A DNA stretch of 64,000 nt from Candidatus Methylomirabilota bacterium (lineage in GTDB: Bacteria; Acidobacteriota; Thermoanaerobaculia; Thermoanaerobaculales; Sulfomarinibacteraceae): contig DATHSO010000150.1 in NCBI GenBank assembly GCA_035464095.1, positions 56,593 to 120,592 of the forward strand, written 5' to 3'. How positions within the stretch are numbered: the stretch's first letter is position 1; each line of letters begins with the position of its first letter. Both the position numbers and the translations under genes were made by a program. Below are positions 1,920 to 52,389 of this stretch, piece by piece. Below the pieces are notes generated by a model. The model did not search any database. It was not told where the DNA came from and worked only from the letters and a program-made list of their open reading frames with translations.

Positions 1920-2681
1920 GTGAGTGTGACCAGCCGAGTCGCCGACCTTTCGTCGCCGGAGCTGCTGGCCCTGGTCCGCGGCGGCAGCCTGGACGACCTC
2001 GAGGTGCTGGAGGTCCTGCGCAGCCCCTTCTGCACCGCCCAGATCGCCGAGCTGGTGGCGTCGGACCGGGAGCACCTCGGGACCCAGTCGGTGCGGGAGC
2101 TGCTGGCGGGGTTCCCCGGCTTGAGCAACGCGCGGGCCATGAACCTCCTGTCATCGCTGCCCTGGACCTCGCTGCTGGCGGTGGCCCAGGCGCCCCGGAC
2201 CCCGCCGCTGGTGCGGCGACAGGCCGAGCGCAAGCTCATTCTCCAGGTCCACTCCATGGCTCTGGGCGAGAAGGTCGCCATGGCGAGGCGGGCGCATCGG
2301 GCCCTGTTTACGGCCCTCGTGCGCGAGGGCGACCCGATGATCCTGAGCGCGCTGCTCGACAACCCGCGCCTGGTGGAGAATGACATCGTGGTGCTCGTCA
2401 ACACCCGGGAGCCGCCTCCCGAGCTGCTGGGAGAGATCGTTCGGCACCACCGCTGGGGTCAGTGCTTCGGGGTTCGGCGGGCCGTCGTCGAGTGCCCGAC
2501 CAGCCCGCTTCCCTTGGCGCTGAGCGTCCTGGTCCAGCTGCCGCCCGTCGAGCTCCAGCGCATTGCCGCCAAGGAGCGGCTGCCGGAGCGCCTGCGGGAC
2601 GCAGCCTCGGCGCTGCTTTGCCGTCGCGAACGGGGCGAGGGGCCGGGGGCGGGGATCGGGAACGGGATCGGGGTCGGTTGA
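1920..2681 (+). CDS. hypothetical helical-repeat protein; start uncertain, C-terminus runs into a repeat block
   Basis: ORF 1794..2681; the first GTG after the prsW-like stop is at 1920. C-terminal ~100 aa are paralogous to ORF 3764..4840. The last 11 codons (GAGIGNGIGVG) are encoded by the GGGATC/GGGAAC repeat. Confidence 0.55.
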   Translation: MSVTSRVADLSSPELLALVRGGSLDDLEVLEVLRSPFCTAQIAELVASDREHLGTQSVRELLAGFPGLSNARAMNLLSSLPWTSLLAVAQAPRTPPLVRRQAERKLILQVHSMALGEKVAMARRAHRALFTALVREGDPMILSALLDNPRLVENDIVVLVNTREPPPELLGEIVRHHRWGQCFGVRRAVVECPTSPLPLALSVLVQLPPVELQRIAAKERLPERLRDAASALLCRRERGEGPGAGIGNGIGVG

Positions 2682-2885
2682 CTCCCGCGGGGGCGCGAGC
2701 GACTGTTCGCTGCCACTGCCACTGCCACTGCCACTGCCACTGCCACTGCCACTGCCACTGTTCCTGATCACTGCCGCTGGTCGCTGTCCCTTGTCACCGG
2801 CGCTGGTCGCCGCCGATGGAACTCCCTCGGGCACGGGCACGGGCACGGGCACGGGGCCGGGAAGGAGGGGAGAAAAAGGGGAATC
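2650..2885. repeat. mosaic block of five different short-tandem-repeat modules (element E1)
   Basis: Modules in order: GGGATC/GGGAAC units 2650..2677; 19-mer junction 2692..2710; (CTGCCA)x8.5 2710..2760; GCTGGTCGCYG words 2761..2820; (GCACGG)x4 2831..2854; purine run GGGAAGGAGGGGAGAAAAAGGGGAA 2859..2883. Confidence 0.9.
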
Positions 2886-2930: not shown

Positions 2931-3764
2931 GTGGTGACGGTTGACGAACCGACCCGGACCGACCCCAGAGCCTTCGGCGAGCAGCTGCGGAGGGTGCGCG
3001 AGAGCGCCGGACTGGAGATCGAGGACATCAGCGCCGAGACCAAGGTCTCGCGGCGGGTCCTCGAGGCTCTCGAGGGGGGGAATTTCGGCACCCTGCCGGA
3101 GCGGGTGTTCTGCCGGAGCTTCGTCGCCCAGTACGCGGGCACCATCGGGATCGACCCCGATCCCCTGGTGGCCGCCTTCGACCGGGCCTGGCAGGACCAC
3201 ACCGAAAGCTCGGGGATCCATGCACGCCCGGTGCCGGAGGTGGCCGACCTGAGCCCGTCCATCCGCTGGCGCTTCTGGATCCCCATCGCCGCCGGCGCTC
3301 TCATCCTGTTGGTGGCCGGAGGCGTGATCCTGAGCGGCTCGTCGTCGGGCCCCCAGGGCCTCAAGCCGGACCCGAGGCGTTCGGGGTCGCGGCAGACAGT
3401 CTCTCAACCGACCCAGCCACCGACGATTCCGGTCCCTCCGGTGGGCACGGCCACGGCGACGGTGCCCGAGCCTGCCGAAGACGCTGTGGTCCGGATGACG
3501 GTCGAGGTGGACGAGGGCGAGGAGTGCTGGATCCACTACCGGGACAGTGAGGGCATGACCGGTCAGCAGCTCCTCACCGGGGGTGAGCGGGTCGCCCTGG
3601 ACCTCCCGGTCCCGGTGAAGCTGACGGTGGGCAATGCCGGCGCCGTCCGGGTGAGCGTGGACGGCCGGACCTTCGGCGATCTCGGTCTGCCCGGCCAGGT
3701 GATCCACACCGAGATCACCGACGACGGCATTCGTCCTCTGGAGTCGGGTGGGTTCGGGGGCTGA
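2931..3764 (+). CDS. rodZ: RodZ-like cytoskeleton-associated protein (N-terminal HTH, TM segment, C-terminal beta domain)
   Basis: N-terminus FGEQLRRVRESAGLEIEDISAETKVSRRVLEALE is XRE-type HTH. Single TM WRFWIPIAAGALILLVAGGVIL. C-terminus LTVGNAGAVRVSVDG is DUF4115-like. Confidence 0.65.
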   Translation: MVTVDEPTRTDPRAFGEQLRRVRESAGLEIEDISAETKVSRRVLEALEGGNFGTLPERVFCRSFVAQYAGTIGIDPDPLVAAFDRAWQDHTESSGIHARPVPEVADLSPSIRWRFWIPIAAGALILLVAGGVILSGSSSGPQGLKPDPRRSGSRQTVSQPTQPPTIPVPPVGTATATVPEPAEDAVVRMTVEVDEGEECWIHYRDSEGMTGQQLLTGGERVALDLPVPVKLTVGNAGAVRVSVDGRTFGDLGLPGQVIHTEITDDGIRPLESGGFGG

Positions 3765-19459: not shown

Positions 19460-20140
19460 GTGACTAGGTCAATGACGACAGCAGCCCTCGCGGTGGCCCT
19501 GGCCTGGACCCTCTCGGCCGCCGCCGGCGAGGAGCCCACCGCGACCCCGACCCCCAGCCCGACTCCGCTCGTCGGCGAGCGCACCCTGTCCGAGGTCGCC
19601 GGTTCCATCACGCTCGACCCCAAGGCGGTCGGCGCCCAAGGCGGGATCGTGATCAGCGACGAGAACCTGTCGGAGCTCGCCGGCAAGGGCGCCATCACCG
19701 AGGTGACCCGCCGGGGCCCGGCCCAGGGCCAGAGGAACCTGGCCGACGTCACCGGCACCGGTGCGGAGGTCGAAGGGCAGGGACCGGGCTTCGCCGAGGG
19801 TCAGGAGCGCAAGCAGTACTGGCAGGGTCTGTATCGGCAGCAGGTCGATCTGGTGACGTCGCTGCGTGGGCAGATCGACCAGCTCGACCGGGAGATTCCG
19901 GGTCTGTGGCGCGACTACTACGCCTGGGACGACCCCGCCTACCGTGACGGCGTCATCAAGCCCAAGCTCGACGAGGCCATGGCCCGGCGCCAGAAGCTCG
20001 AGGCCGACCTCCAACAGGCCGAGGCCCGGCTCGATCAGATCGAGCAGGATGCCCGTCGCGACGGGGCCCAGCCGGGCTGGTTCAGAGGCATCGAGAAGCC
20101 GCCGACGCCGGTGCCGACCCGCGGCGTGATGCCCCCCTGA
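19460..20140 (+). CDS. hypothetical secreted coiled-coil protein
   Basis: Signal-peptide-like N-terminus MTTAALAVALAWTLSAAAG, a Pro/Thr linker and a coiled-coil C-terminus. Confidence 0.55.
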   Translation: MTRSMTTAALAVALAWTLSAAAGEEPTATPTPSPTPLVGERTLSEVAGSITLDPKAVGAQGGIVISDENLSELAGKGAITEVTRRGPAQGQRNLADVTGTGAEVEGQGPGFAEGQERKQYWQGLYRQQVDLVTSLRGQIDQLDREIPGLWRDYYAWDDPAYRDGVIKPKLDEAMARRQKLEADLQQAEARLDQIEQDARRDGAQPGWFRGIEKPPTPVPTRGVMPP

Positions 20141-20251
20141 GCGCGGCCGGGACGCCGCCGGCGGCTCCCCCTGGAAAAGACCTGAGAACGGAATCGCCGG
20201 CCGGCGACGTCGACGCGCCTGTCAGTCGCATGACCTCGCCGTGAGGTGACT

Positions 20252-20450
20252 TGCAGTGGCAGTTCCAGCGGCCGTGAACGATCGCCCGCGCCGGAGCGGG
20301 CGTCTCACCTCGATCCCGATCCCGGTCCCGATCCCGGTCCCGAACGGCCCGGGTCCGGGTTCGAGTCCGGTTGCTGCCGCTACCCCTGCCGATGCCACTG
20401 AATCTGATACTGCCACTGAGTCTGCCACTGTCACTGCCGCTGTCTCCTGC
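20252..20450. repeat. left repeat complex of the four-helix-bundle cassette (element E2)
   Basis: GCAGTGGCAGT fragment 20252..20262; 19-mer GTGAACGATCGCCCGCGCC 20274..20292; (GATCCC/GGTCCC)x5 20312..20342; degenerate CTGCCR units 20373..20450. Confidence 0.85.
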
Positions 20451-20586
20451 TACGGCCCCGCCGGCATGATCACCTCCGGGCCGTTCCTGGCGGCGGTGGT
20501 AGTCGCCGGGACGTTCCGCGTCATGGGCGCCCGACCACCCGACCTCCCTTGACCCGGAACGCCCCGGCGACTCGGGGGAGAGGGCC

Positions 20587-20955
20587 ATGAACGACCCGGA
20601 GGTGACCATGCACGACAACCGATCCGGCAACGAGCTCACCGCCCACCGCAAGGCCGTCGAGGCCGCGGGTATCGCCATCAGCCTCGTCCCACGGCTACCC
20701 GCCCATCTCAGGAGCCTCGCCGACCAGGTTGTCCGGTCCGCCTCGTCGGTGGCCGCCAACCTCGCCGAGGGCCAGGGCCGATTCGGGAAGGACCGCGCTT
20801 ACCATTGGCGCATCGCGTACGGCTCCGCTCGAGAGGTCGACACCCATCTCAGGCTCCTGATCGGTGCGGGTGCCGCCGATCGAGCCCTGACCGCGATCAG
20901 CCTCTTCGACGAAGTGCGAGCCATGACCTGGCGGTTGCTCCATCCCCAGCTCTGA
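20587..20955 (+). CDS. four-helix-bundle protein (23S rRNA intervening-sequence protein family; Avd-like)
   Basis: Motifs QVVRSASSVAANLAEGQGR and RIAYGSAREVDTHLRLL match the family signature (R.A.S...NIAEG..R; A.GS..E..T.L). SD GGGGAGAGG lies upstream. Confidence 0.8.
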   Translation: MNDPEVTMHDNRSGNELTAHRKAVEAAGIAISLVPRLPAHLRSLADQVVRSASSVAANLAEGQGRFGKDRAYHWRIAYGSAREVDTHLRLLIGAGAADRALTAISLFDEVRAMTWRLLHPQL

Positions 20956-20978
20956 CGCGGCCTGGTCGGCGTGCCGCA

Positions 20979-21003
20979 TTGTGGGGCCGGCGGCTCGCCG
21001 GCC
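20979..21003 (+). other. conserved 25-nt motif with 8-bp GC stem-loop downstream of the four-helix-bundle ORF
   Basis: TTGTGGGGCCGGCGGCTCGCCGGCC is identical to 45424..45448. Stem GGCCGGCG / CGCCGGCC with a 3-nt loop and no U-tract. Confidence 0.85.
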
Positions 21004-21025
21004 TCGCCCGGGCGTTCCGGACCTT

Positions 21026-21136
21026 AGTGACAGTCACAGTGGCAGTGCCAGTGGCAGTGGCAGTGGCAGTGGCAGTGAACAGTCGCCCGCGCCGCTGCCG
21101 CCGTCCACCTCTCCCACTCCTTCTCGCTCTCCCTCG
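21026..21136. repeat. right repeat complex of the four-helix-bundle cassette (element E2)
   Basis: (AGTGAC/AGTGGC)x~9 at 21026..21077 is the reverse complement of the CTGCCA unit. It is followed by the 19-mer GTGAACAGTCGCCCGCGCC 21075..21093 and a CT-rich run 21103..21136. Confidence 0.9.
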
Positions 21137-21297
21137 CGATGGCGTTCAGCGCGCTGGGAAGGAGGAGCCGCCAGCGACGTGGCCGGGCTCGGGGAGGTGC
21201 TGGAGGTCGAACGTATCGGCTTGTCCTTGCACAGCGATCGGCTCACGGGGTAGACTCCCCCGGTGAGCGTGTTTTGGGAGTGAAACGCAATCTCACC

Positions 21298-22626
21298 ATG
21301 AGGACCTTCTTCGTCGAGACCTGGGGCTGCCAGATGAATCAGCACGACAGCGAGCTGATCGAGGGGCAGCTGCGGCGCCACGGCCTCGAGCCGGCCCCGT
21401 CGGCCAACGGCGCCGATCTGGTCGTCCTCAACACCTGCTCGGTCCGGGACAAGCCGGTCCAGAAGATCATCAGCCGGATCGGCGCCCTCGCGAAGTCCAG
21501 CCCGCGCACCACCATCGGGGTGTGCGGTTGCGTTGCCGAGCAGGAGGGTGGGGCCCTGCTCGACCGGTCGCACTCGGTGGGCTTCGTGCTCGGGCCGGGT
21601 CAGGCCGGCCGGATCGGCGAGGCGGTCCGCGCGCTGACCCAGGGCGAGCGACCTGTCTTCACGGGCTTCGACGCCGAGACCGAGCACAACCACCGGACGA
21701 TCTTCCGCAAGAGCTCGACCCGGGGCATGGTCACGGTGATCGAGGGCTGCAACGAGTTCTGCACCTTCTGCATCGTGCCCTACACCCGGGGCCGGGAGGT
21801 CAGCCGGCCCCTGGACGGCATCCTCGACGAGGTCCGTAGACTCGCCGCCGACGGGGTGCGCGAGGTGGAGCTCCTCGGCCAGACGATCAACGCCTACCGC
21901 TGCCCCCGGACCGGGGCCGACCTGGCCGGCCTGCTGGAGCGGGTGGCGGGGGTCGATGGTCTCCTCAGGGTGCGCTTCATCACCTCGCACCCGCGCCACT
22001 TCGACCAGGGTCTGATCGATGTTATTGCAGCGAAAGCCACTGTTTTCAGTTATTTACATCTTCCAATCCAGTCCGGTTCGGACCCGGTCCTGAAACGGAT
22101 GCACCGCCGGTACACCCGCGGGGAGTACCTCGACCTGGTGGCCCGGATCCGAGCCGCCTCCCCGGAGATCAACCTGTCGACGGACATCATCGTCGGCTTT
22201 CCGGGGGAGAGCGAGGCCGACTTCGAAGCCACCCTGGCGGTGCTCGACGAGGTCCGATTCGGCCAGGTCTTCGCCTTCGGGTTCTCGCCGAGACCGCGAA
22301 CCCCGGCTGCCCGCTACCGCCCCCGGGTGCCCGACGAGGTCGTCAGCGAGAGGCTCCAACGCCTGTTCGCCATGACCGACCGGATCTCCCTGGAGCTCAA
22401 CCAGGAGCTCGTGGGCCGTCGGGTGCAGGTCCTCATCGATGGGCCGAGCCGGCGCGACCCGTCGCACTGGCAGGGCAGGGGAGAGGACAACCGGGTGGTC
22501 AACTTCCCGGCCCTCGGCCGCGAGGGCGTGGGCGACCTGGTCGAGGTGGAGATCCTTCGGGCGGGTCCCCACGCCCTCGCGGGGGAGATCGTCGCCGGCG
22601 CCGTGCGGCTTCCGGTCCTTCCTTGA
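21298..22626 (+). CDS. miaB: tRNA-i6A37 methylthiotransferase
   Basis: N-terminus FVETWGCQMNQHDSE and radical SAM motif CNEFCTFCIVPYTRG, with a TRAM-like C-terminus. Confidence 0.9.
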   Translation: MRTFFVETWGCQMNQHDSELIEGQLRRHGLEPAPSANGADLVVLNTCSVRDKPVQKIISRIGALAKSSPRTTIGVCGCVAEQEGGALLDRSHSVGFVLGPGQAGRIGEAVRALTQGERPVFTGFDAETEHNHRTIFRKSSTRGMVTVIEGCNEFCTFCIVPYTRGREVSRPLDGILDEVRRLAADGVREVELLGQTINAYRCPRTGADLAGLLERVAGVDGLLRVRFITSHPRHFDQGLIDVIAAKATVFSYLHLPIQSGSDPVLKRMHRRYTRGEYLDLVARIRAASPEINLSTDIIVGFPGESEADFEATLAVLDEVRFGQVFAFGFSPRPRTPAARYRPRVPDEVVSERLQRLFAMTDRISLELNQELVGRRVQVLIDGPSRRDPSHWQGRGEDNRVVNFPALGREGVGDLVEVEILRAGPHALAGEIVAGAVRLPVLP

Positions 22627-32866: not shown

Positions 32867-32971
32867 CCCCTCTCCTTCTCTCTCTCCCTCTCCCTTTCCG
32901 TCTCCCTTCGCGGGCGGGCTGGTTATCGCAAGGGAGAGGGAGAGAGAGAAGGAGAAGGAGCGGGAGAGGGG
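32867..32971. repeat. CT-rich / GA-rich inverted-repeat hairpin (element E3)
   Basis: Left arm CCCCTCTCCTTCTCTCTCTCCCTCTCCCTTTCCGTCTCCCT 32867..32907 and right arm AGGGAGAGGGAGAGAGAGAAGGAGAAGGAGCGGGAGAGGGG 32931..32971. The 23-nt loop contains TTATCGCAAGG. Confidence 0.9.
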
Positions 32972-32986
32972 AACGGGCGGAGCCCG

Positions 32987-33583
32987 TTACCACTCGACCG
33001 GGACGGTGCGGGGCTTGCCGCCGAAGCGCGAGACCATGACGCAGCGGTTGCGCTTGCCGAAGTCGTAGAGGTCGCGGGTGACCCTGACGTCCTCGCGGCA
33101 GTACTCGACGATCTTGTCGATCTCGCCGAGCCGCCACCAGTCGAGGGCCTGGAGCCCGTCCGCGGTCTTGCCGCAGCCGAGGCTCGGCAACGCCACGCTT
33201 TCCAGCTTGGGCCGGAAGCCGAGGCGATCCTCGAGGTCCGCCATCAGGTCGAAGGTCGGCAGCAGCTGCAGGTCGACGTCGGTGTAACCCCGCAGCACCT
33301 GGTAGTCGAAGCCCCGGATGTTGTAGCCGACCACGAGGTCGGCGCGCCGCAGCAGCTCGACGAGCTCGCCGACGGTGTCCTCGGTGTAGACCAGGAACTC
33401 GTCGGTGTCGTAGCGGTAGGCGACGCCCACCGACACCCCGAGGCGGTGCAGCTGGCTGCGCCCTCCGACCTCGTCGAAGGAGCGCTGGGTCTCGAGGTCG
33501 AAGACCACCACCAGACGGTCGGCGCCGACCTCGCGCTGCGGGTTGTCGTCGAAGAGGCCCATCTGGCCGTCCCAGATCTCCAC
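32987..33583 (-). CDS. RNase H-like / DEDD-type 3'-5' exonuclease domain protein
   Basis: Motifs VVVFDLETQ, GYNIRGFDYQVL and EYCREDVRVTRDLY. Confidence 0.65.
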   Translation of the reverse strand: MEIWDGQMGLFDDNPQREVGADRLVVVFDLETQRSFDEVGGRSQLHRLGVSVGVAYRYDTDEFLVYTEDTVGELVELLRRADLVVGYNIRGFDYQVLRGYTDVDLQLLPTFDLMADLEDRLGFRPKLESVALPSLGCGKTADGLQALDWWRLGEIDKIVEYCREDVRVTRDLYDFGKRNRCVMVSRFGGKPRTVPVEW

Positions 33584-40205: not shown

Positions 40206-40318
40206 AATTATGAATTATGAATTATGAATTACATCGCAAGGGCGGCGACGTCTTCGAGAGCAGTTCACAGGATCAGTGCCCGCCATTCATAATTCATAAT
40301 TCAAAATTCATAATTCAC
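40206..40318. repeat. AT-rich heptamer foldback (element E4)
   Basis: (AATTATG)x3.9 at 40206..40232 and its complement (CATAATT-type)x~5 at 40285..40318 flank a 52-nt GC-rich core. Strong AT island in a GC-rich genome. Confidence 0.9.
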
Positions 40319-41916: not shown

Positions 41917-42536
41917 GGGTTTTAACCGCGAAGACGCAAAGATCGCGAAGCCATCGCAGACATCGCATTGTTAACGCAGAGGCGCAGAGACATCGCAGAC
42001 ATCACAGCTCAACGCAAAGGCGCCAAGGCGCAAAGACGCAAAGACATCGCAGCCATCGCAGGGAGTGTGGGCGGCGGAGTCGGCGGCGGTTCGGAACCGC
42101 CGCCACCGCGACGGCGTGCGTCCGATCCGAACACGGGTGTTCGTCCCGGCCGCATGCCGTCCCGGCCCGCTGTGCTCGGAGCACAGCGGCTCCGCCTCGG
42201 TGACACGTTGCCTTCACGTCATGCCGAGTCGGGCGTCCCGGGCCTGTCGAATCCTCGGGGAGCCCTCGGAGATCGACCTTCGGGGAATGCCAACCCGGAC
42301 CTCAGTGCCGCACCGTCGGGCCTCACTCCGGACCGCGGGAGAGCGACGCACCGTCGACCGTCAGACCCGCACGCTCCCGAGCTGCGATGCCCTCGGCACC
42401 ACTGCGTAGGTCTGCGATGGGCCAGAAATGCGATGGTGCGATGGCTCTGCGGCTCTGAGCCTCTGCGTTGAAAATGCGATGTGCGCGATGACCTTGTGAT
42501 GTCTTCGCGTTCTCCGCGTCTTCGCGGTTCAACCCC
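41917..42536. repeat. ~620-bp foldback element with ~150-nt word-repeat inverted arms (element E6)
   Basis: Left arm 41917..42063 and right arm ~42382..42536 are imperfect reverse complements built from the words CGCGAAG, CCATCGCAG, GCGCAGAG and ACGCAAAG. Termini are GGGTTTTAACCGCGAAGACGC / GCGTCTTCGCGGTTCAACCCC. Confidence 0.85.
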
Positions 42537-45062: not shown

Positions 45063-45092
45063 GTCATCAGTAGTGAGTGGTGAGTGTCGGAC

Positions 45093-45182
45093 GGTGCCAG
45101 GTACGGCGACTTGACAAACACGCCAAGAACCACGCCACCGCTGCATCGATGACGAGTTTGTCAAGTCGCCGTACCTGGCACC
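45093..45182. repeat. perfect 27-bp inverted repeat with 36-nt loop
   Basis: GGTGCCAGGTACGGCGACTTGACAAAC (45093..45119) and GTTTGTCAAGTCGCCGTACCTGGCACC (45156..45182). The right arm lies within the decayed four-helix-bundle reading frame. Confidence 0.95.
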
Positions 45183-45405
45183 CTCGGAGATCGTCCGATC
45201 CACGGGACCGGGGCACGGGAGGGCCGGGAAGGATCGGGCGTACTACTTCCGCGTCGCCTTCGGCTCCGCGAAGGAGGCCGAGACCCACCTCGGGATTCTG
45301 CTCACTGCCGGTGTTATCGATCGCGGCCAAGCCATTCGCGCCCTCCGGCTCTTCGACGACGTCCGCGCCATGACTTGGAGGCTCCTTCCCCCTCACCCTG
45401 AACTT
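45115..45405 (+). pseudogene. decayed four-helix-bundle (IVS-protein family) gene remnant
   Basis: My frame-1 translation gives ...PSEIVRSTGPGHGRAGKDRAYYFRVAFGSAKEAETHLGILLTAGVIDRGQAIRALRLFDDVRAMTWRLLPPHPEL, colinear with ORF 20587..20955. It has no ATG/GTG/TTG start, a shortened NIAEG region, and an upstream in-frame stop at 45112. Confidence 0.7.
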
Positions 45406-45423
45406 GCGCACCCGGGACGCTCG

Positions 45424-45448
45424 TTGTGGGGCCGGCGGCTCGCCGGCC
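45424..45448 (+). other. second copy of the conserved 25-nt stem-loop motif
   Basis: TTGTGGGGCCGGCGGCTCGCCGGCC, identical to 20979..21003 and in the same position downstream of the four-helix-bundle homology. Confidence 0.85.
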
Positions 45449-45451
45449 AAC

Positions 45452-45665
45452 GGGTGAACGCACCCGGAGCCGGAGCCGGTGCTGGTCGCTGACGCCGGTC
45501 GCTGACGCTGGCGCTGGTTGCTGCCCCTGATCGCTGGCGCTGATCGCTGATGCTGATCGCTGATGCTGATCGCTGACAGCTGGTCGCTGTCATCGGGTGC
45601 GGGCACCCGGCTCCGCCTTCGGCTTCGCCGTGCCAAGCGGACGCGGACGCGGACGGGGGAAGGCC
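45452..45665. repeat. right repeat complex of the decayed cassette (element E5)
   Basis: GGTGAACGCACCCGG; (GGAGCC)x2; GCTGGTCGCTGAC/GCTGATCGCTGAT units 45481..45592; GCACCCGGCTCC; (GGACGC)x3 45638..45657; GGGGGAAGGCCGGG. Confidence 0.85.
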
Positions 45666-45708
45666 GGGCACTTGCGGGGATGGCGTGGTCGTCGGTACAG
45701 TGGTCCGG

Positions 45709-48619: not shown

Positions 48620-48738
48620 CCTACTTTTTCCCCTCCTTCTTCCTCTCCCCCGGGCGATCCGGAACGCTCGACTGATGACAGTCCGCTGTGAATCCGGGTC
48701 GTGTCTGGGAGAGGAAGAAGGAGAGGAAAAAGGAGAGG
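48620..48738. repeat. CT-rich / GA-rich inverted-repeat hairpin (element E8)
   Basis: Left arm CCTACTTTTTCCCCTCCTTCTTCCTCTCCCCC 48620..48651 and right arm GGGAGAGGAAGAAGGAGAGGAAAAAGGAGAGG 48707..48738. The 55-nt core has its own imperfect IR. Confidence 0.9.
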
Positions 48739-50847: not shown

Positions 50848-51797
50848 GCCGGCTGCTGCGCTTCACCGTCCCCGACAGCCTGGCCGGGAGCCGGCTCGAC
50901 CGCTGCCTCGCCGCCCTCGAGGAGCCCTGGTCGCGGTCGCGGGTGCGGCGGCTCGTCGACGACGGCCGGGTCACCCACAACGGCCGGCCGGCAAAGCCGG
51001 CGACCACGGTCGCCGCCGGGGACGAGCTGGTGGTGGACGAACCCGACGTCGAGCCCCTGGACGTGGTGGCTGAGGCCATCCCCCTGACGGTGGTCTTCGA
51101 GGACGACGAGATCCTGGTGATCGACAAGCCCGCCGACCTGGTGATCCACCCCGCCGCCGGCAACCCCTCCGGGACCCTGGTCAACGCCCTCCTCCACCAC
51201 TGCCGGGACCTGTCGGGGATCGGCGGGGTCGCCCGTCCCGGCATCGTCCACCGCCTCGACAAGGACACCACGGGCCTCATGGTGGTGGCCAAGACCGACC
51301 GCGCCCACCAGGCCCTGGCCCTGGCCTTCCGCTGGCGCAAGGTGACCAAGACCTACCTGGCGGTGTGCTACGGCTCGCCGGCCGACGACGAGGGCGTCGT
51401 CGACGCACCCATCGACCGGCACCCCCGGGAGCGCCGGCAGATGGCGGTGGTCGCCGACGGCCGCCCGGCGCGGACCCTGTACTCCGTGGCGGAACGCTGG
51501 CAGGGGGTCTCGCTGCTGCACTGCCGGCTGGTTACGGGCCGCACCCACCAGATCCGGGTCCACATGGCCCACGTCGGCCACGCCCTGGTGGGCGACCCCC
51601 TCTACGCCGGGCGGCAGTGGCGGAACGTGCCCGATCCTCGGGCGCGGGCGGCCTGCCGGGAGTTCCCGAGGCAGGCGCTGCACGCCATGCGGCTCGCGTT
51701 CGCGCACCCCGTCAGCGGCGAGGTCCTCGAGCTCGAGGCGCCGCCGCCGGCCGACCTGCAGGGCCTCATCGACCTCCTGCGGCGCGCGGGGGGTTGA
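50844..51797 (+). CDS. rluD: 23S rRNA pseudouridine synthase, RluD family
   Basis: S4-like N-terminus, then GIVHRLDKDTTGLMVVAK and TGRTHQIRVH. The ATGA overlaps the lgt stop. The stop codon lies inside the terminus of the foldback element at 51790. Confidence 0.9.
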   Translation: MSRLLRFTVPDSLAGSRLDRCLAALEEPWSRSRVRRLVDDGRVTHNGRPAKPATTVAAGDELVVDEPDVEPLDVVAEAIPLTVVFEDDEILVIDKPADLVIHPAAGNPSGTLVNALLHHCRDLSGIGGVARPGIVHRLDKDTTGLMVVAKTDRAHQALALAFRWRKVTKTYLAVCYGSPADDEGVVDAPIDRHPRERRQMAVVADGRPARTLYSVAERWQGVSLLHCRLVTGRTHQIRVHMAHVGHALVGDPLYAGRQWRNVPDPRARAACREFPRQALHAMRLAFAHPVSGEVLELEAPPPADLQGLIDLLRRAGG

Positions 51798-52389
51798 ACC
51801 GCGAAGGCGCGAAGGACGCGAAGCCATCGCAGTCATCGCAGAGCCATCGCAGGCATCGCAGGTTGAACCGCAAAGACCGCGAAGAGCGCAACGCAGGGCA
51901 CGCGAAGACATCGCATTTCTGAGCCATCGCAGGCATCGCAGGCGTCGCAATCACGAAGACACCGAGACACGAAGAAATTTGATCGTGGCGGCGGCGGCTC
52001 GCCGGTGGTCGCCGGCGATGCCGATCACGTAACCGTATCCTCCGTAGGCGGGTCGTTGACGACCCGCGACCACCGACGTGGAGGGGGCCGGTGGCGTCGG
52101 TCGAGACCGCGGGCGTCGTGGCCGCGGGGCCTGAAGACCCCGCCTACGGGGAGGGGCTGCCGGGTTCGTGGTGTGGTTGCCGGATCGGCCTTGAGGGGTC
52201 GGGATCGGGACCCTCCTACTTCGTGTGCGACGTCTTCGTGATTTCGTGTTTCAAACTGCGATGGTTGCGATGGCTCATTCCTGCGATGGTGCGATGGACT
52301 CTGCGCCTCTGCGCCTCTGCGCCTCTGCGCTGAATGCGATGGCTGCGATGGCTGCGATGGCTTCGCGTTCTTCGCGTCTTCGCGGTGAC
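51790..52389. repeat. ~600-bp foldback element, same family as 41917..42536 (element E7)
   Basis: Left arm 51790..~51978 starts GGGGTTGAACCGCGAAGGCGCGAAGG. Right arm ~52219..52389 includes (CTCTGCGC)x4 and (GCGATGGCT)x3 and ends GCGTCTTCGCGGTGAC. The arms are imperfect reverse complements. Confidence 0.85.

Follow-up and report, generated by a model that had tools for sequence, protein, structure and literature searches.

The window analysed here is a stretch of 64,000 nt with 71% G+C, and all coordinates given below are positions of that stretch. It carries the genes of a core chromosome (ribF, rpoN, hpf, ptsN, hprK, rapZ, ptsI, miaB, parAB, lptFG, guaA, rluD and others), and between two co-oriented protein-coding genes it holds the subject of this analysis, a cassette with a single gene for a four-helix-bundle protein, enclosed by arrays of short tandem repeats. 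Upstream of the cassette lies an open reading frame (ORF) of 226 aa, hereafter up226, for which a Pfam scan returned no family match, and downstream lies miaB, confirmed by a profile match. An earlier note on this DNA, made from its letters, had read the gene as a member of the family named after ORFs inside the intervening sequences (IVSs) of 23S rRNA, seated in the loop of a hexamer-repeat foldback outside rRNA. A discrete cassette of this family among protein-coding genes is indeed what lies there: an Rfam scan of the window matched neither rRNA nor any other RNA family, and no tRNA was found near the cassette. What the note missed is the feature that organises the locus, a palindrome of about 150 nt that includes the start codon. 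We suggest that the cassette is probably one copy of a mobile palindromic element. Its parts, all on the plus strand and including the outer repeat modules that the earlier note had already placed beyond the arms, are as follows.

20254..20276, plus strand: short far-left CAGTGG-type array CAGTGGCAGTTCCAGCGGCCGTG, the 5' arm of an upstream module M (sequence; longer in the orthologous locus L080)
20274..20311, plus strand: spacer S GTGAACGATCGCCCGCGCCGGAGCGGGCGTCTCACCTC, itself a small hairpin, with a direct repeat at 21075-21111 (direct-repeat alignment; also in the gene-less module 2630-2870, minus strand)
20311..20343, plus strand: (GATCCC/GGTCCC) hexamer array, 5.5 units (Tandem Repeats Finder, TRF)
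20349..20370, plus strand: (CCGGGT)n run after the (GATCCC/GGTCCC) array
20373..20450, plus strand: left arm, degenerate CTGCCR hexamers (TRF, inverted-repeat search, alignment)
20464..20491, plus strand: 'anti-start' box, the reverse complement of the first eight codons of the ORF (28 nt, 89% complementary to 20584-20611)
20501..20572, plus strand: inner palindrome hairpin with its arms at 20501-20527 and 20546-20572, foot GTAG..., apex GTCATGG / CCTTGAC (27 nt, 89% complementarity)
20574..20584, plus strand: purine-rich, Shine-Dalgarno-like stretch GGGGGAGAGGG (sequence and alignment; putative function)
20587..20610, plus strand: 'start box' ATGAACGACCCGGAGGTGACCATG, the first eight codons (constrained at the nucleotide level; encodes a disordered N-terminal tail)
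20587..20955, plus strand: four-helix-bundle gene (PF05635 / TIGR02436; Avd- and S23p-like), 122 aa, pI 9.5 (profile, structure and selection evidence)
20985..21003, plus strand: post-gene GC hairpin GGCCGGCGGCTCGCCGGCC, common to the second copy (45430-45448) and to L080, L082 and L109
20994..21020, plus strand: segment complementary to 20554-20580 just upstream of the gene (27 nt, 81%)
21026..21077, plus strand: right arm, (CAGTGG/CAGTGA), 8.7 units (TRF, alignment; more copies in L080)
21075..21111, plus strand: S', a second copy of spacer S in the same orientation, roughly where the insert ends on its right side (direct-repeat alignment)
21108..21135, plus strand: CT-rich run, apparently ancestral (by-eye comparison with the empty site L085)

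The ORF at 20587-20955 matches PF05635 with 51 bits against a cut-off of 33.8 (E 1.9e-13) and TIGR02436 with 55.3 bits against a cut-off of 24, as the earlier note had expected of it. An AlphaFold (AF2) model of the 122-aa protein, built on 50 homologues, has a pLDDT (predicted local distance difference test) score of 88 and helices at residues 14-32, 39-63, 67-93 and 98-118; its N-terminus is disordered, with residues 1-3 and 5-11 below a pLDDT of 50 and the first helix starting at residue 14. The top Foldseek matches in the PDB are Xcc0516 (2gsc; E 2.7e-4, template-modelling (TM) score 0.74), BT_0352 (2rld) and Avd of diversity-generating retroelements (DGRs; 8ub7, 4dwl), with TM scores of 0.70-0.74. 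A PDB sequence search with 20587-20952 also returned designer pentatricopeptide-repeat proteins (5orq, 4pjq and others) at whole-sequence E-values of 1e-8 to 1e-12; since no single stretch passed, we dismiss these as summed weak matches to residues 81-111 of helices 3-4, a repeat artefact. Across the family, 81 of 89 gene copies are intact, with a median dN/dS among paralogues of 0.16 and a median pI of 9.9, and the copies are, on these codon ratios, under purifying selection.

The likeness to Avd, in fold and in family, raises the question of whether the locus could be an orphan or degenerate DGR, with the gene as Avd and the arms as template repeat and variable repeat (TR/VR). This idea is largely refuted and we give it next to no weight: the window holds no reverse transcriptase (RT) or target gene, the arms are non-coding 6-7-nt repeats whose mismatches are not adenine-specific, which also disposes of them as a TR/VR pair, and the gene occurs in dozens of copies per genome. 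Of the 53 coding-like ORFs in the window, 43 were scanned with Pfam; housekeeping families alone came up and no transposase, integrase or RT, in agreement with the earlier note, and PADLOC and PHROGs profiles gave no match to anti-phage defence or phage families.

Comparison with orthologous sites indicates that the cassette was inserted. A scan for relatives of up226 gave 24 metagenome loci, and in ten of them (L083, L085, L086, L088-L092, L094, L095) up226 adjoins miaB, in most with a cupin gene, across a spacer of 98-173 nt that contains no four-helix-bundle gene; the same spacer measures 1157 nt in the window and 1381 nt in the orthologue L080. The cassette, whose absence from the miaB-upstream region of relatives the earlier note had proposed to look for, is thus on alignment an insertion relative to these sites. 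About 65 nt adjoining miaB resemble host sequence, parts of them recurring in the empty sites, and a CT-rich/GA-rich mini-hairpin at 21108-21170 (the CT-rich run with GGGAAGGAGGAG) is probably ancestral as well, since by-eye comparison shows its like in the empty site L085. The fold of this mini-hairpin does not reach significance (z 0.16). We therefore place the inserted DNA at about 20250-21110.

To describe the element we compared the best 80 matches to the window protein (79 distinct loci) out of at least 159 in GTDB representative genomes, all the loci compared being from metagenome-assembled genomes (MAGs) except those on the plasmids of Nostoc PCC 7120. Printing the flanks and folding 75 leaders revealed the near-perfect palindrome of about 150 nt, lying just upstream of the gene and overlapping its start, in every fold shown. 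It consists of two nested helices. In the outer helix (helix 1), the start codon and first eight codons ATGAACGACCCGGAGGTGACCATG are paired with an inverted upstream copy; the box spans 22-24 nt, and 90.5% of cells are paired across 75 distinct sequences. The inner helix, about 25 bp long across the family, has a conserved foot (RTAG-CCG/CGG-CT, with RTAG at the 5' foot in 69 of 77 sequences), a conserved apex (GTCAAGG/CCTTGAC) and a variable, covarying middle. Compensatory changes occur at 15 of its 19 pairs with almost no G-U (one pair, for example, is AU in 40 sequences, GC in 23 and UA in 9), and one-sided G-U changes number 0-2 per pair against up to 35 double changes. Taken over 41 palindrome pairs, 92.5% of cells are paired, compared with 27-46% in controls with slid partners, and double changes fill 227 cells as against 16-32 in those controls; none of 500 shuffles reached the observed values. 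The Shine-Dalgarno-like stretch GGGGGAGAGGG is mostly unpaired in the fold of the window leader and lies between the helices counted for covariation.

The start box is held constant beyond what its coding role would ask. Synonymous-pair difference is 0.006 in the first eight codons and 0.431 in the remainder of the gene, and since the tail that these codons encode is disordered, we regard the 24-nt box as a cis element and not just as coding sequence. On the minus strand, the sequence that mirrors the start frequently lacks an initiation codon, with TTG or AGG in the place of ATG; a conserved short ORF beginning at this 'pseudo-start' was rejected on inspection for the same reason, which argues that the inverted copy is kept for its complementarity and not for coding. 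We also considered the TTGACA of the hairpin apex as a sigma-70 -35 box, a reading that found no support: there is no promoter-like site in 20050-21350 and no conserved -10 was seen in the alignment. The same interval holds no terminator-like site, and the post-gene GC hairpin, having no T-run, is not a canonical terminator.

The covariation of the palindrome, being Watson-Crick only, points to hairpins of DNA rather than of RNA, and the two strands fold alike: sense and antisense leaders have equal energies, the sense strand being more stable in 35 of 75. This bears on the possibility that the family is a host-domesticated set of paralogues, for instance of a stress or RNA-binding factor, in which the leader is a translational-control hairpin that masks the start codon, the copies arise by ordinary duplication and recombination, and the arrays are neutral and found genome-wide in the intergenic DNA of the lineage. 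Such a leader would account well for a start codon inside a conserved helix with the Shine-Dalgarno-like stretch outside the counted helices, and a host role would account for the strong purifying selection on every copy; it sits badly with hairpin covariation restricted to Watson-Crick pairs. One locus displays the symmetry of the palindrome in full. At L112:192-1041 (DATIUZ010000129.1, from the same MAG as the orthologue L080), two intact four-helix-bundle genes stand head-to-head, 100 nt apart, on one shared palindrome, the element thus being present here as a full inverted duplication. Gene pairs in convergent, tail-to-tail order were also seen in L003, L004 and L068.

The repeat arms had been the centre of the earlier note, and the inverted hexamer arrays at 20373-20450 and 21026-21077 do bracket the ORF. 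Over 49-50 nt the arms are 76-83% complementary, their inverted local alignment scores 27 against 10.2 ± 1.5 (maximum 17) in 500 dinucleotide shuffles, and their duplex energy is -75 kcal/mol against -51 ± 5 in shuffles; the 891-nt fold of 20250-21140 has a z of -5.7, with the arms paired in the minimum free energy (MFE) structure. From these properties one could argue for an IVS-like RNA cassette, in which the arms form a stem in a read-through transcript that RNase III cuts, freeing the ORF loop and separating the flanking mRNAs. [quoted passage not shown]

We nevertheless consider this RNA cassette unlikely. For these degenerate arms, on which harsh mismatch penalties had no power, softer alignment scoring and motif asymmetry were used. 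An arm aligned with its own partner scores 22.3, with the partners of other loci 20.3, in direct orientation 13.3 and after shuffling 10.3, so that complementarity is not locus-specific. Mismatches are of the sense-strand G-U type in 151 cases and of the antisense type in 168, and transversions dominate with 578. The arms as a co-evolving stem are rejected on both counts. At L110 (about 1780-1870), about 15 perfect (CAGGGG) hexamers precede a four-helix-bundle gene of 75% identity and no complementary arm follows it, so the arms are not always paired. Moreover, the covarying inner hairpin avoids G-U and folds alike in sense and antisense, no rRNA context was found in the window, and a cut within the start/anti-start helix would destroy the 5' end of the ORF.

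At the cassette itself, where the arms are degenerate at about 70-80%, there are also alternative local pairings. The flanks share a direct repeat that is stronger than the inverted one (it scores 37 in the window, while in L080 it extends for about 180 nt and scores 86), with the consequence that the left arm can also pair locally with the far-left CAGTGG array at 20254-20276 (duplex -31 kcal/mol). In the subclade of the window (the window, L080/L081, L082 and L109), the core lies between direct copies of a module M of about 180 nt, made of (CAGTGG)n, the spacer hairpin S, (NNTCCC)n, CCGGGT repeats and (CTGCCA)n, the right copy in the window being truncated. With the gene between two direct, repeat-armed hairpin modules, the ORF in the loop of a long stem is one of two pairings, the other being two local flanking hairpins. 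Of the foldback described in the earlier note, the complementarity stands, and the arms behave otherwise than a selected RNA stem would. Repeat units turn over quickly: the core of L080 is about 97% identical to that of the window (a by-eye estimate from the alignment), yet units and copy numbers differ, with GCTCCC/GTTCCC in L080 where the window has (GATCCC/GGTCCC)n.

Arms of this kind nonetheless recur at most loci of the family, a point that the earlier note had proposed to test by a census. In a census of 66 loci, scoring the 300 nt upstream and the 250 nt downstream for CAG/CTG richness, the upstream side was CAG-rich at 62, the downstream side CTG-rich at 49, and both held at 47. CAGs recur in these non-coding repeats after 6 nt in 36% of intervals and after 7 nt in 30% (unit CAGCGR / CAGYGNN). 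The window, with CTG upstream and CAG downstream, is the sole case of reversed polarity among the 67 loci of the arm census, a polarity shared by L080, L082 and L109. In our view, the arms are best seen, on these alignments, as mirror-image, fast-evolving repeat arrays that match at the level of vocabulary, their complementarity following from the symmetry of the element about its palindrome.

The distribution of the element is that of something that has recently multiplied. The best 80 matches come almost entirely from MAGs of Thermoanaerobaculia, Holophagae and Ca. Sulfomarinibacteraceae, and among them single MAGs contribute many loci: at least 21 in CAWCLO01, a long-read assembly, at least 11 in CAWDGW01 and at least 9 in CAVZOK01. 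Cores are 96-99% identical among five CAVZOK01 copies and 88-94% identical among about twenty CAWCLO01 copies, whereas sequence 0.9-1.5 kb from the cores aligns at about 0.60, the level of every pair compared. The contexts differ as well, a protein 93% identical to that of the window (P0002) having glutamate-synthase and rubrerythrin genes as neighbours and an 86% relative (L109) lying in a third gene context. Near-identical cores at unrelated loci are, as far as alignments can tell, the signature of recent intragenomic proliferation, to which gene conversion could contribute. More widely, the window protein has more than 3000 database relatives, among them proteins from MAGs labelled as several phyla; many of the relatives lie on contigs below 2 kb, and dozens of near-identical palindromic copies per genome may explain why these genes so frequently end up on metagenome contigs of this size. 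MAGs with the labels Methylomirabilota, Deinococcales, Holophagae and 'Chondromyces' contain proteins 68-93% identical to that of the window; either the cassette has spread horizontally, or short contigs bounded by repeats have been mis-binned.

In the subfamily of CAWCLO01 and CAVZOK01, the ends of the element can be placed at nucleotide resolution, as aligned copies lose similarity at sharp points. The element measures 840-977 bp and runs from CACTGCTGTCCAAAACA... to ...GGACAAGAGTG, which form a terminal inverted repeat (CACTGCTGTCC...GGACAAGAGTG) with AT on each side. Outside it, in most copies, a tandem array of heptamers continues on both sides, direct and in phase, in units of AT plus five nucleotides (ATCCTGC, ATCCAGC, ATACTGG, ATTCTCG and others). 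At least three exact 7-mers are common to left and right in direct orientation at 10 of 20 loci and in inverted orientation at 2 of 20, against 9.5% across loci. Copies that are 97-99% identical to each other carry different heptamers, and the arrays therefore belong to the target and not to the element, which to judge from these junctions either prefers heptamer arrays or is retained in them. The flanking AT, in phase with the arrays, fits a 2-bp target-site duplication and equally an AT that is part of the element end without duplication. At the left ends of L062, L070, L075 and L078 (about 3566-3600), the TIR CACTGCTGTCCAAAACAAATCCAC is reminiscent of the terminal repeat of Tc1, CAGTGCTGGCCAAAAAGATATCCAC; the flank is AT and not the TA of Tc1/IS630. 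This TIR was not found in the window copy, which is flanked by direct module repeats instead.

Several of these findings count against a domesticated host family. Ordinary paralogues would hardly have, even in one subfamily, TIR-bounded ends with phase-specific junctions, cores 96-99% identical at unrelated loci, presence and absence at orthologous sites, and a near-identical protein in MAGs labelled as different phyla. In its favour, gene-less repeat-armed hairpins are common in the window and variable between relatives, as detailed below. On balance we judge a domesticated host family to be quite improbable.

Elsewhere in the window, the earlier note had listed seven loci as related in architecture or vocabulary. 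Two of them are related to the cassette, that at 45067 being a second, decayed copy and that at 2650 a gene-less flanking module; the remaining five (32867, 40206, 48620, 41917 and 51790) are repeat-armed foldbacks of differing vocabularies without a four-helix-bundle gene. The related pieces are the following.

2630..2870, minus strand: gene-less copy of module M, (CAGTGG) 8.5 units, S and (GATCCC)n (alignment with the cassette flanks, TRF)
45067..45680, plus strand: second, decayed copy of the element (tblastn, sequence)
about 45097-45180, plus strand: inner hairpin of the second copy
45130-45405, plus strand: four-helix-bundle remnant of the second copy, residues 38-122 only (the C-terminal 85 residues), motif damaged (tblastn 50% identity, E 4e-23)
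45430-45448, plus strand: GC hairpin of the second copy, the same as the post-gene hairpin of the cassette
45464-45589, plus strand: right arm of the second copy, GCTGAYC 6-7-mers

The site of the second copy, between a kinase gene and a gene for a tetratricopeptide-repeat (TPR) protein, likewise varies in presence and absence between relatives: the orthologous spacer measures 58 nt in L116, which is empty, 185 nt in L115, which has repeat modules only, 487 nt in L114 and 622 nt in the window (45063-45684). In L114 (2013-2501), where the TPR protein beside the site shows 97% identity, the place of the gene remnant of the window is taken by two GTAG-tagged hairpins resembling repetitive extragenic palindromic (REP) sequences, gggcgggtgtaaaacccgcccctacg ... 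cgtaggggagggttttagaccctcccc. The same pair also adjoins the head-to-head gene pair of L112.

Two of the gene-less loci, 51790-52384 and 41917-42530, are giant foldbacks of about 600 nt with DNA fold z values of -14.9 and -9.4. Their arms are built of 8-9-nt units (ACCGCGAAG, CATCGCAG, GCGCAGAG, CGCAAAG), and their loops of about 310 nt are themselves palindromic, with GTAG-type hairpins (ccgtaggcgggtc...); no credible ORF was found in these loops, and no tblastn match to the four-helix-bundle protein below E 0.1. Their vocabulary recurs at the right end of the orthologous cassette of L080 and is not seen in the window cassette. The other three are small hairpins with inverted tandem-repeat arms (fold z -3.8 to -6.8): 32868-32970, with (CCCTCT)n/(AGGGAG)n arms, and 40206-40317, with the AT-rich heptamers (AATTATG)n/(ATTCATA)n as arms in a genome of 71% GC, each lie immediately 3' of a minus-strand gene, and 48620-48738 has arms of CCTCCTTCTTCC/GGAGAGGAAAAA. 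Adjoining the (CCCTCT)n/(AGGGAG)n hairpin is a 198-aa ORF at 32987-33583 (minus strand) with a weak match to the RNase_H_2 superfamily (PF13482, E 1.6e-7). The 48620 hairpin is present in the window and in L114 (97% relative), but L115 and L116, with orthologous spacers of 47-48 nt, lack it; between window and L114, no compensatory change was obvious by eye. Judging from such comparisons, the intergenic sites of this lineage are repeatedly colonised by modular repeat-armed palindromes, the four-helix-bundle cassette being the cargo-bearing kind.

We posit, then, that about 20250-21110 is a copy of a multicopy, mobile, DNA-level hairpin/foldback element of the Thermoanaerobaculia and Holophagae (Acidobacteriota), a chromosomal counterpart to the rRNA IVSs that bear an ORF, recently mobile in related genomes, and we put the probability of this reading at roughly 0.6. 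On profile and model evidence, its only gene is that of a basic four-helix-bundle protein of the IVS-protein/Avd family. The palindromes would extrude as hairpins in single-stranded or supercoiled DNA and be recognised by the machinery that copies or moves the element; the lack of G-U intermediates and the strand symmetry of the leader support action through hairpins of DNA. Short-tandem-repeat arrays would be the preferred landing sites. Because multicopy selfish elements normally keep intact only the genes for their own propagation, the protein is most likely a cis-acting binding factor, that is, the nucleic-acid-binding component that the element itself would supply and require in cis, and it may bind the start-box hairpin much as Avd binds the stem-loops of DGR RNA. 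Catalysis would probably come from a hairpin-specific transposase acting in trans, the leading candidate being one of the REP-associated tyrosine transposase (RAYT) or IS200-IS605 type; the RTAG foot recalls GTAG-tagged REPs and their RAYTs, although the AG is paired here. The mirror-image arms would be a by-product of inverted-duplication symmetry, of which L112 shows the full head-to-head pair. Were the element transcribed by read-through, this symmetry would conceal the start codon and give rise to double-stranded RNA cleavable by RNase III, effects that are plausible on the analogy of rRNA IVSs and Correia elements and that we would regard as secondary to the raison d'être of the element.

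Several observations weigh against such a mobile DNA element. Helix 1 has sense-strand G-U pairs, in 33 cells at two positions, and these leave room for a role of the RNA in sequestering the start codon. Among the 43 window ORFs scanned, no transposase, integrase or RT came up, and none was seen adjoining any copy; the protein itself is a helical bundle of 122 aa in which we know of no catalytic motif. The AG of RTAG is base-paired with CT, unlike the unpaired GTAG of classical REPs. The similarity of copies within a genome could partly reflect gene conversion and not transposition. The subfamily of the window has no TIRs, and its ends are fuzzy and known from four loci only. Finally, all data on the element family are drawn from metagenome-assembled genomes.

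We would go further, tentatively and in the knowledge that the idea is possible rather than probable, and suggest that a new class of mobile elements might work through hairpins, with PF05635 proteins as the factor dedicated to their mobility or maintenance. Such proteins would recognise the start-box palindrome and CAG-phased arrays of their own element and recruit or replace a nuclease or polymerase, so that the cassette is copied into arrays of short tandem repeats and into the loops of hairpins; the ORF-bearing IVSs of rRNA would then be the same elements in the loops of rRNA helices, and the Avd of DGRs a domesticated relative. The function of the proteins encoded in 23S rRNA IVSs ('S23p', TIGR02436) is not known, and a suggestion made in 1993 that they play a role in IVS mobility was never tested, for want of a tractable system (PMC4990558). 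The element makes this question, now some 30 years old, directly testable, since the family offers a sole-cargo gene, recent proliferation, defined ends, target arrays, a constrained 24-nt cis box and empty sites. It also links three unexplained features of bacterial genomes, namely IVSs, orphan Avd-like genes and intergenic short tandem repeats.

The earlier note knew of no description of this class of element, and none was found in full-text searches of the literature, which turned up no palindromic, repeat-armed, multicopy cassette and in which four-helix-bundle genes of this kind appeared only in a study of the Coxiella IVS, in papers on DGRs, in a note of such genes inside cas operons and in passing genome annotations. 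The ORF-bearing IVSs of 23S rRNA, as in Leptospira and Coxiella burnetii (S23p), share with the element a PF05635 gene as sole ORF, a size of a few hundred nt to 1 kb, inverted repeats capable of forming a stem, a sporadic and apparently horizontally transferred distribution, and the old hypothesis of the ORF as a mobility factor (PMC4990558). They differ from it in sitting in helix 9, 25 or 45 of 23S (or 16S) rRNA, whereas the element lies outside rRNA, and in having a unique stem of 28 bp where the element has degenerate tandem repeats. IVSs are processed by RNase III, an enzyme that may also cut transcripts of the element; unlike them, the element has a palindrome that takes in the start codon, occurs dozens of times per genome, has tandem repeats as its targets and, in one subfamily, ends in TIRs.

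MITEs such as Correia/NEMIS, and REPs or bacterial interspersed mosaic elements (BIMEs) with their RAYTs, are likewise palindromes inserted between genes in many copies; they too have TIRs or hairpins, are polymorphic for presence and absence and cluster as mosaics, and their hairpins, like those of the element, could be cut by RNase III if transcribed. GTAG-tagged REPs have been hypothesised to be mobilised by RAYTs (PMC3733652); the window ORFs scanned included no RAYT. The element has a GTAG-like tag at the foot of its hairpin, but with the AG paired to CT and in a stem of about 25 bp within a palindrome of 150 nt, so that its RTAG is partly base-paired, whereas the GTAG of REPs is unpaired and their palindrome is of 20-40 bp. 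MITEs and REPs are, moreover, non-coding and much shorter, while nearly all copies of the element retain an intact, selected, non-transposase gene. The DGR accessory protein Avd is a basic pentamer that binds RNA stem-loops of DGR RNA (bioRxiv 10.1101/2023.10.23.563531). It resembles the element protein as a homologous four-helix bundle (TM 0.70-0.74) that is likewise basic, and Avd for its part binds structured RNA and is required, in a cis-like manner, by a mobile genetic process; the element differs from DGRs in having no RT, TR/VR pair or signature of adenine mutagenesis, and in carrying its gene stand-alone and in many copies.

Further afield, microsatellite-targeting transposons (for example MuTAnT in Medicago) resemble the element in inserting into, or being associated with, short tandem repeats. 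The Foldback (FB) transposons of eukaryotes have long inverted arms of short tandem sub-repeats in variable number, with a loop that may carry coding sequence, as in the element; they differ in being eukaryotic, in the lengths of their sub-repeats and in having a known associated transposase, and no homology is implied. Intergenic DNA frequently contains heptamer arrays to which no function has been assigned, as in the short tandemly repeated repetitive (STRR) sequences of cyanobacteria and the TAACTGA repeats of Beggiatoaceae, with units that differ from those of the element, and in the literature we found no description of a link between such arrays and four-helix-bundle genes. On the plasmids alpha and gamma of Nostoc PCC 7120 (L107, L108; about 1770-1830), a four-helix-bundle gene, with the same protein accession on both, lies among ISL3, ISAzo13 and IS200/IS605 transposase genes, and downstream of it comes a (TCTGCCC)n array, one unit longer on one plasmid than on the other; this example, the sole one examined outside the Acidobacteriota, has no palindromic leader. 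Set beside these systems, the element would be a palindromic mobile element whose cargo and architecture are without precedent, and it is closest in concept to the ORF-bearing IVSs of rRNA and then to MITE and REP elements.

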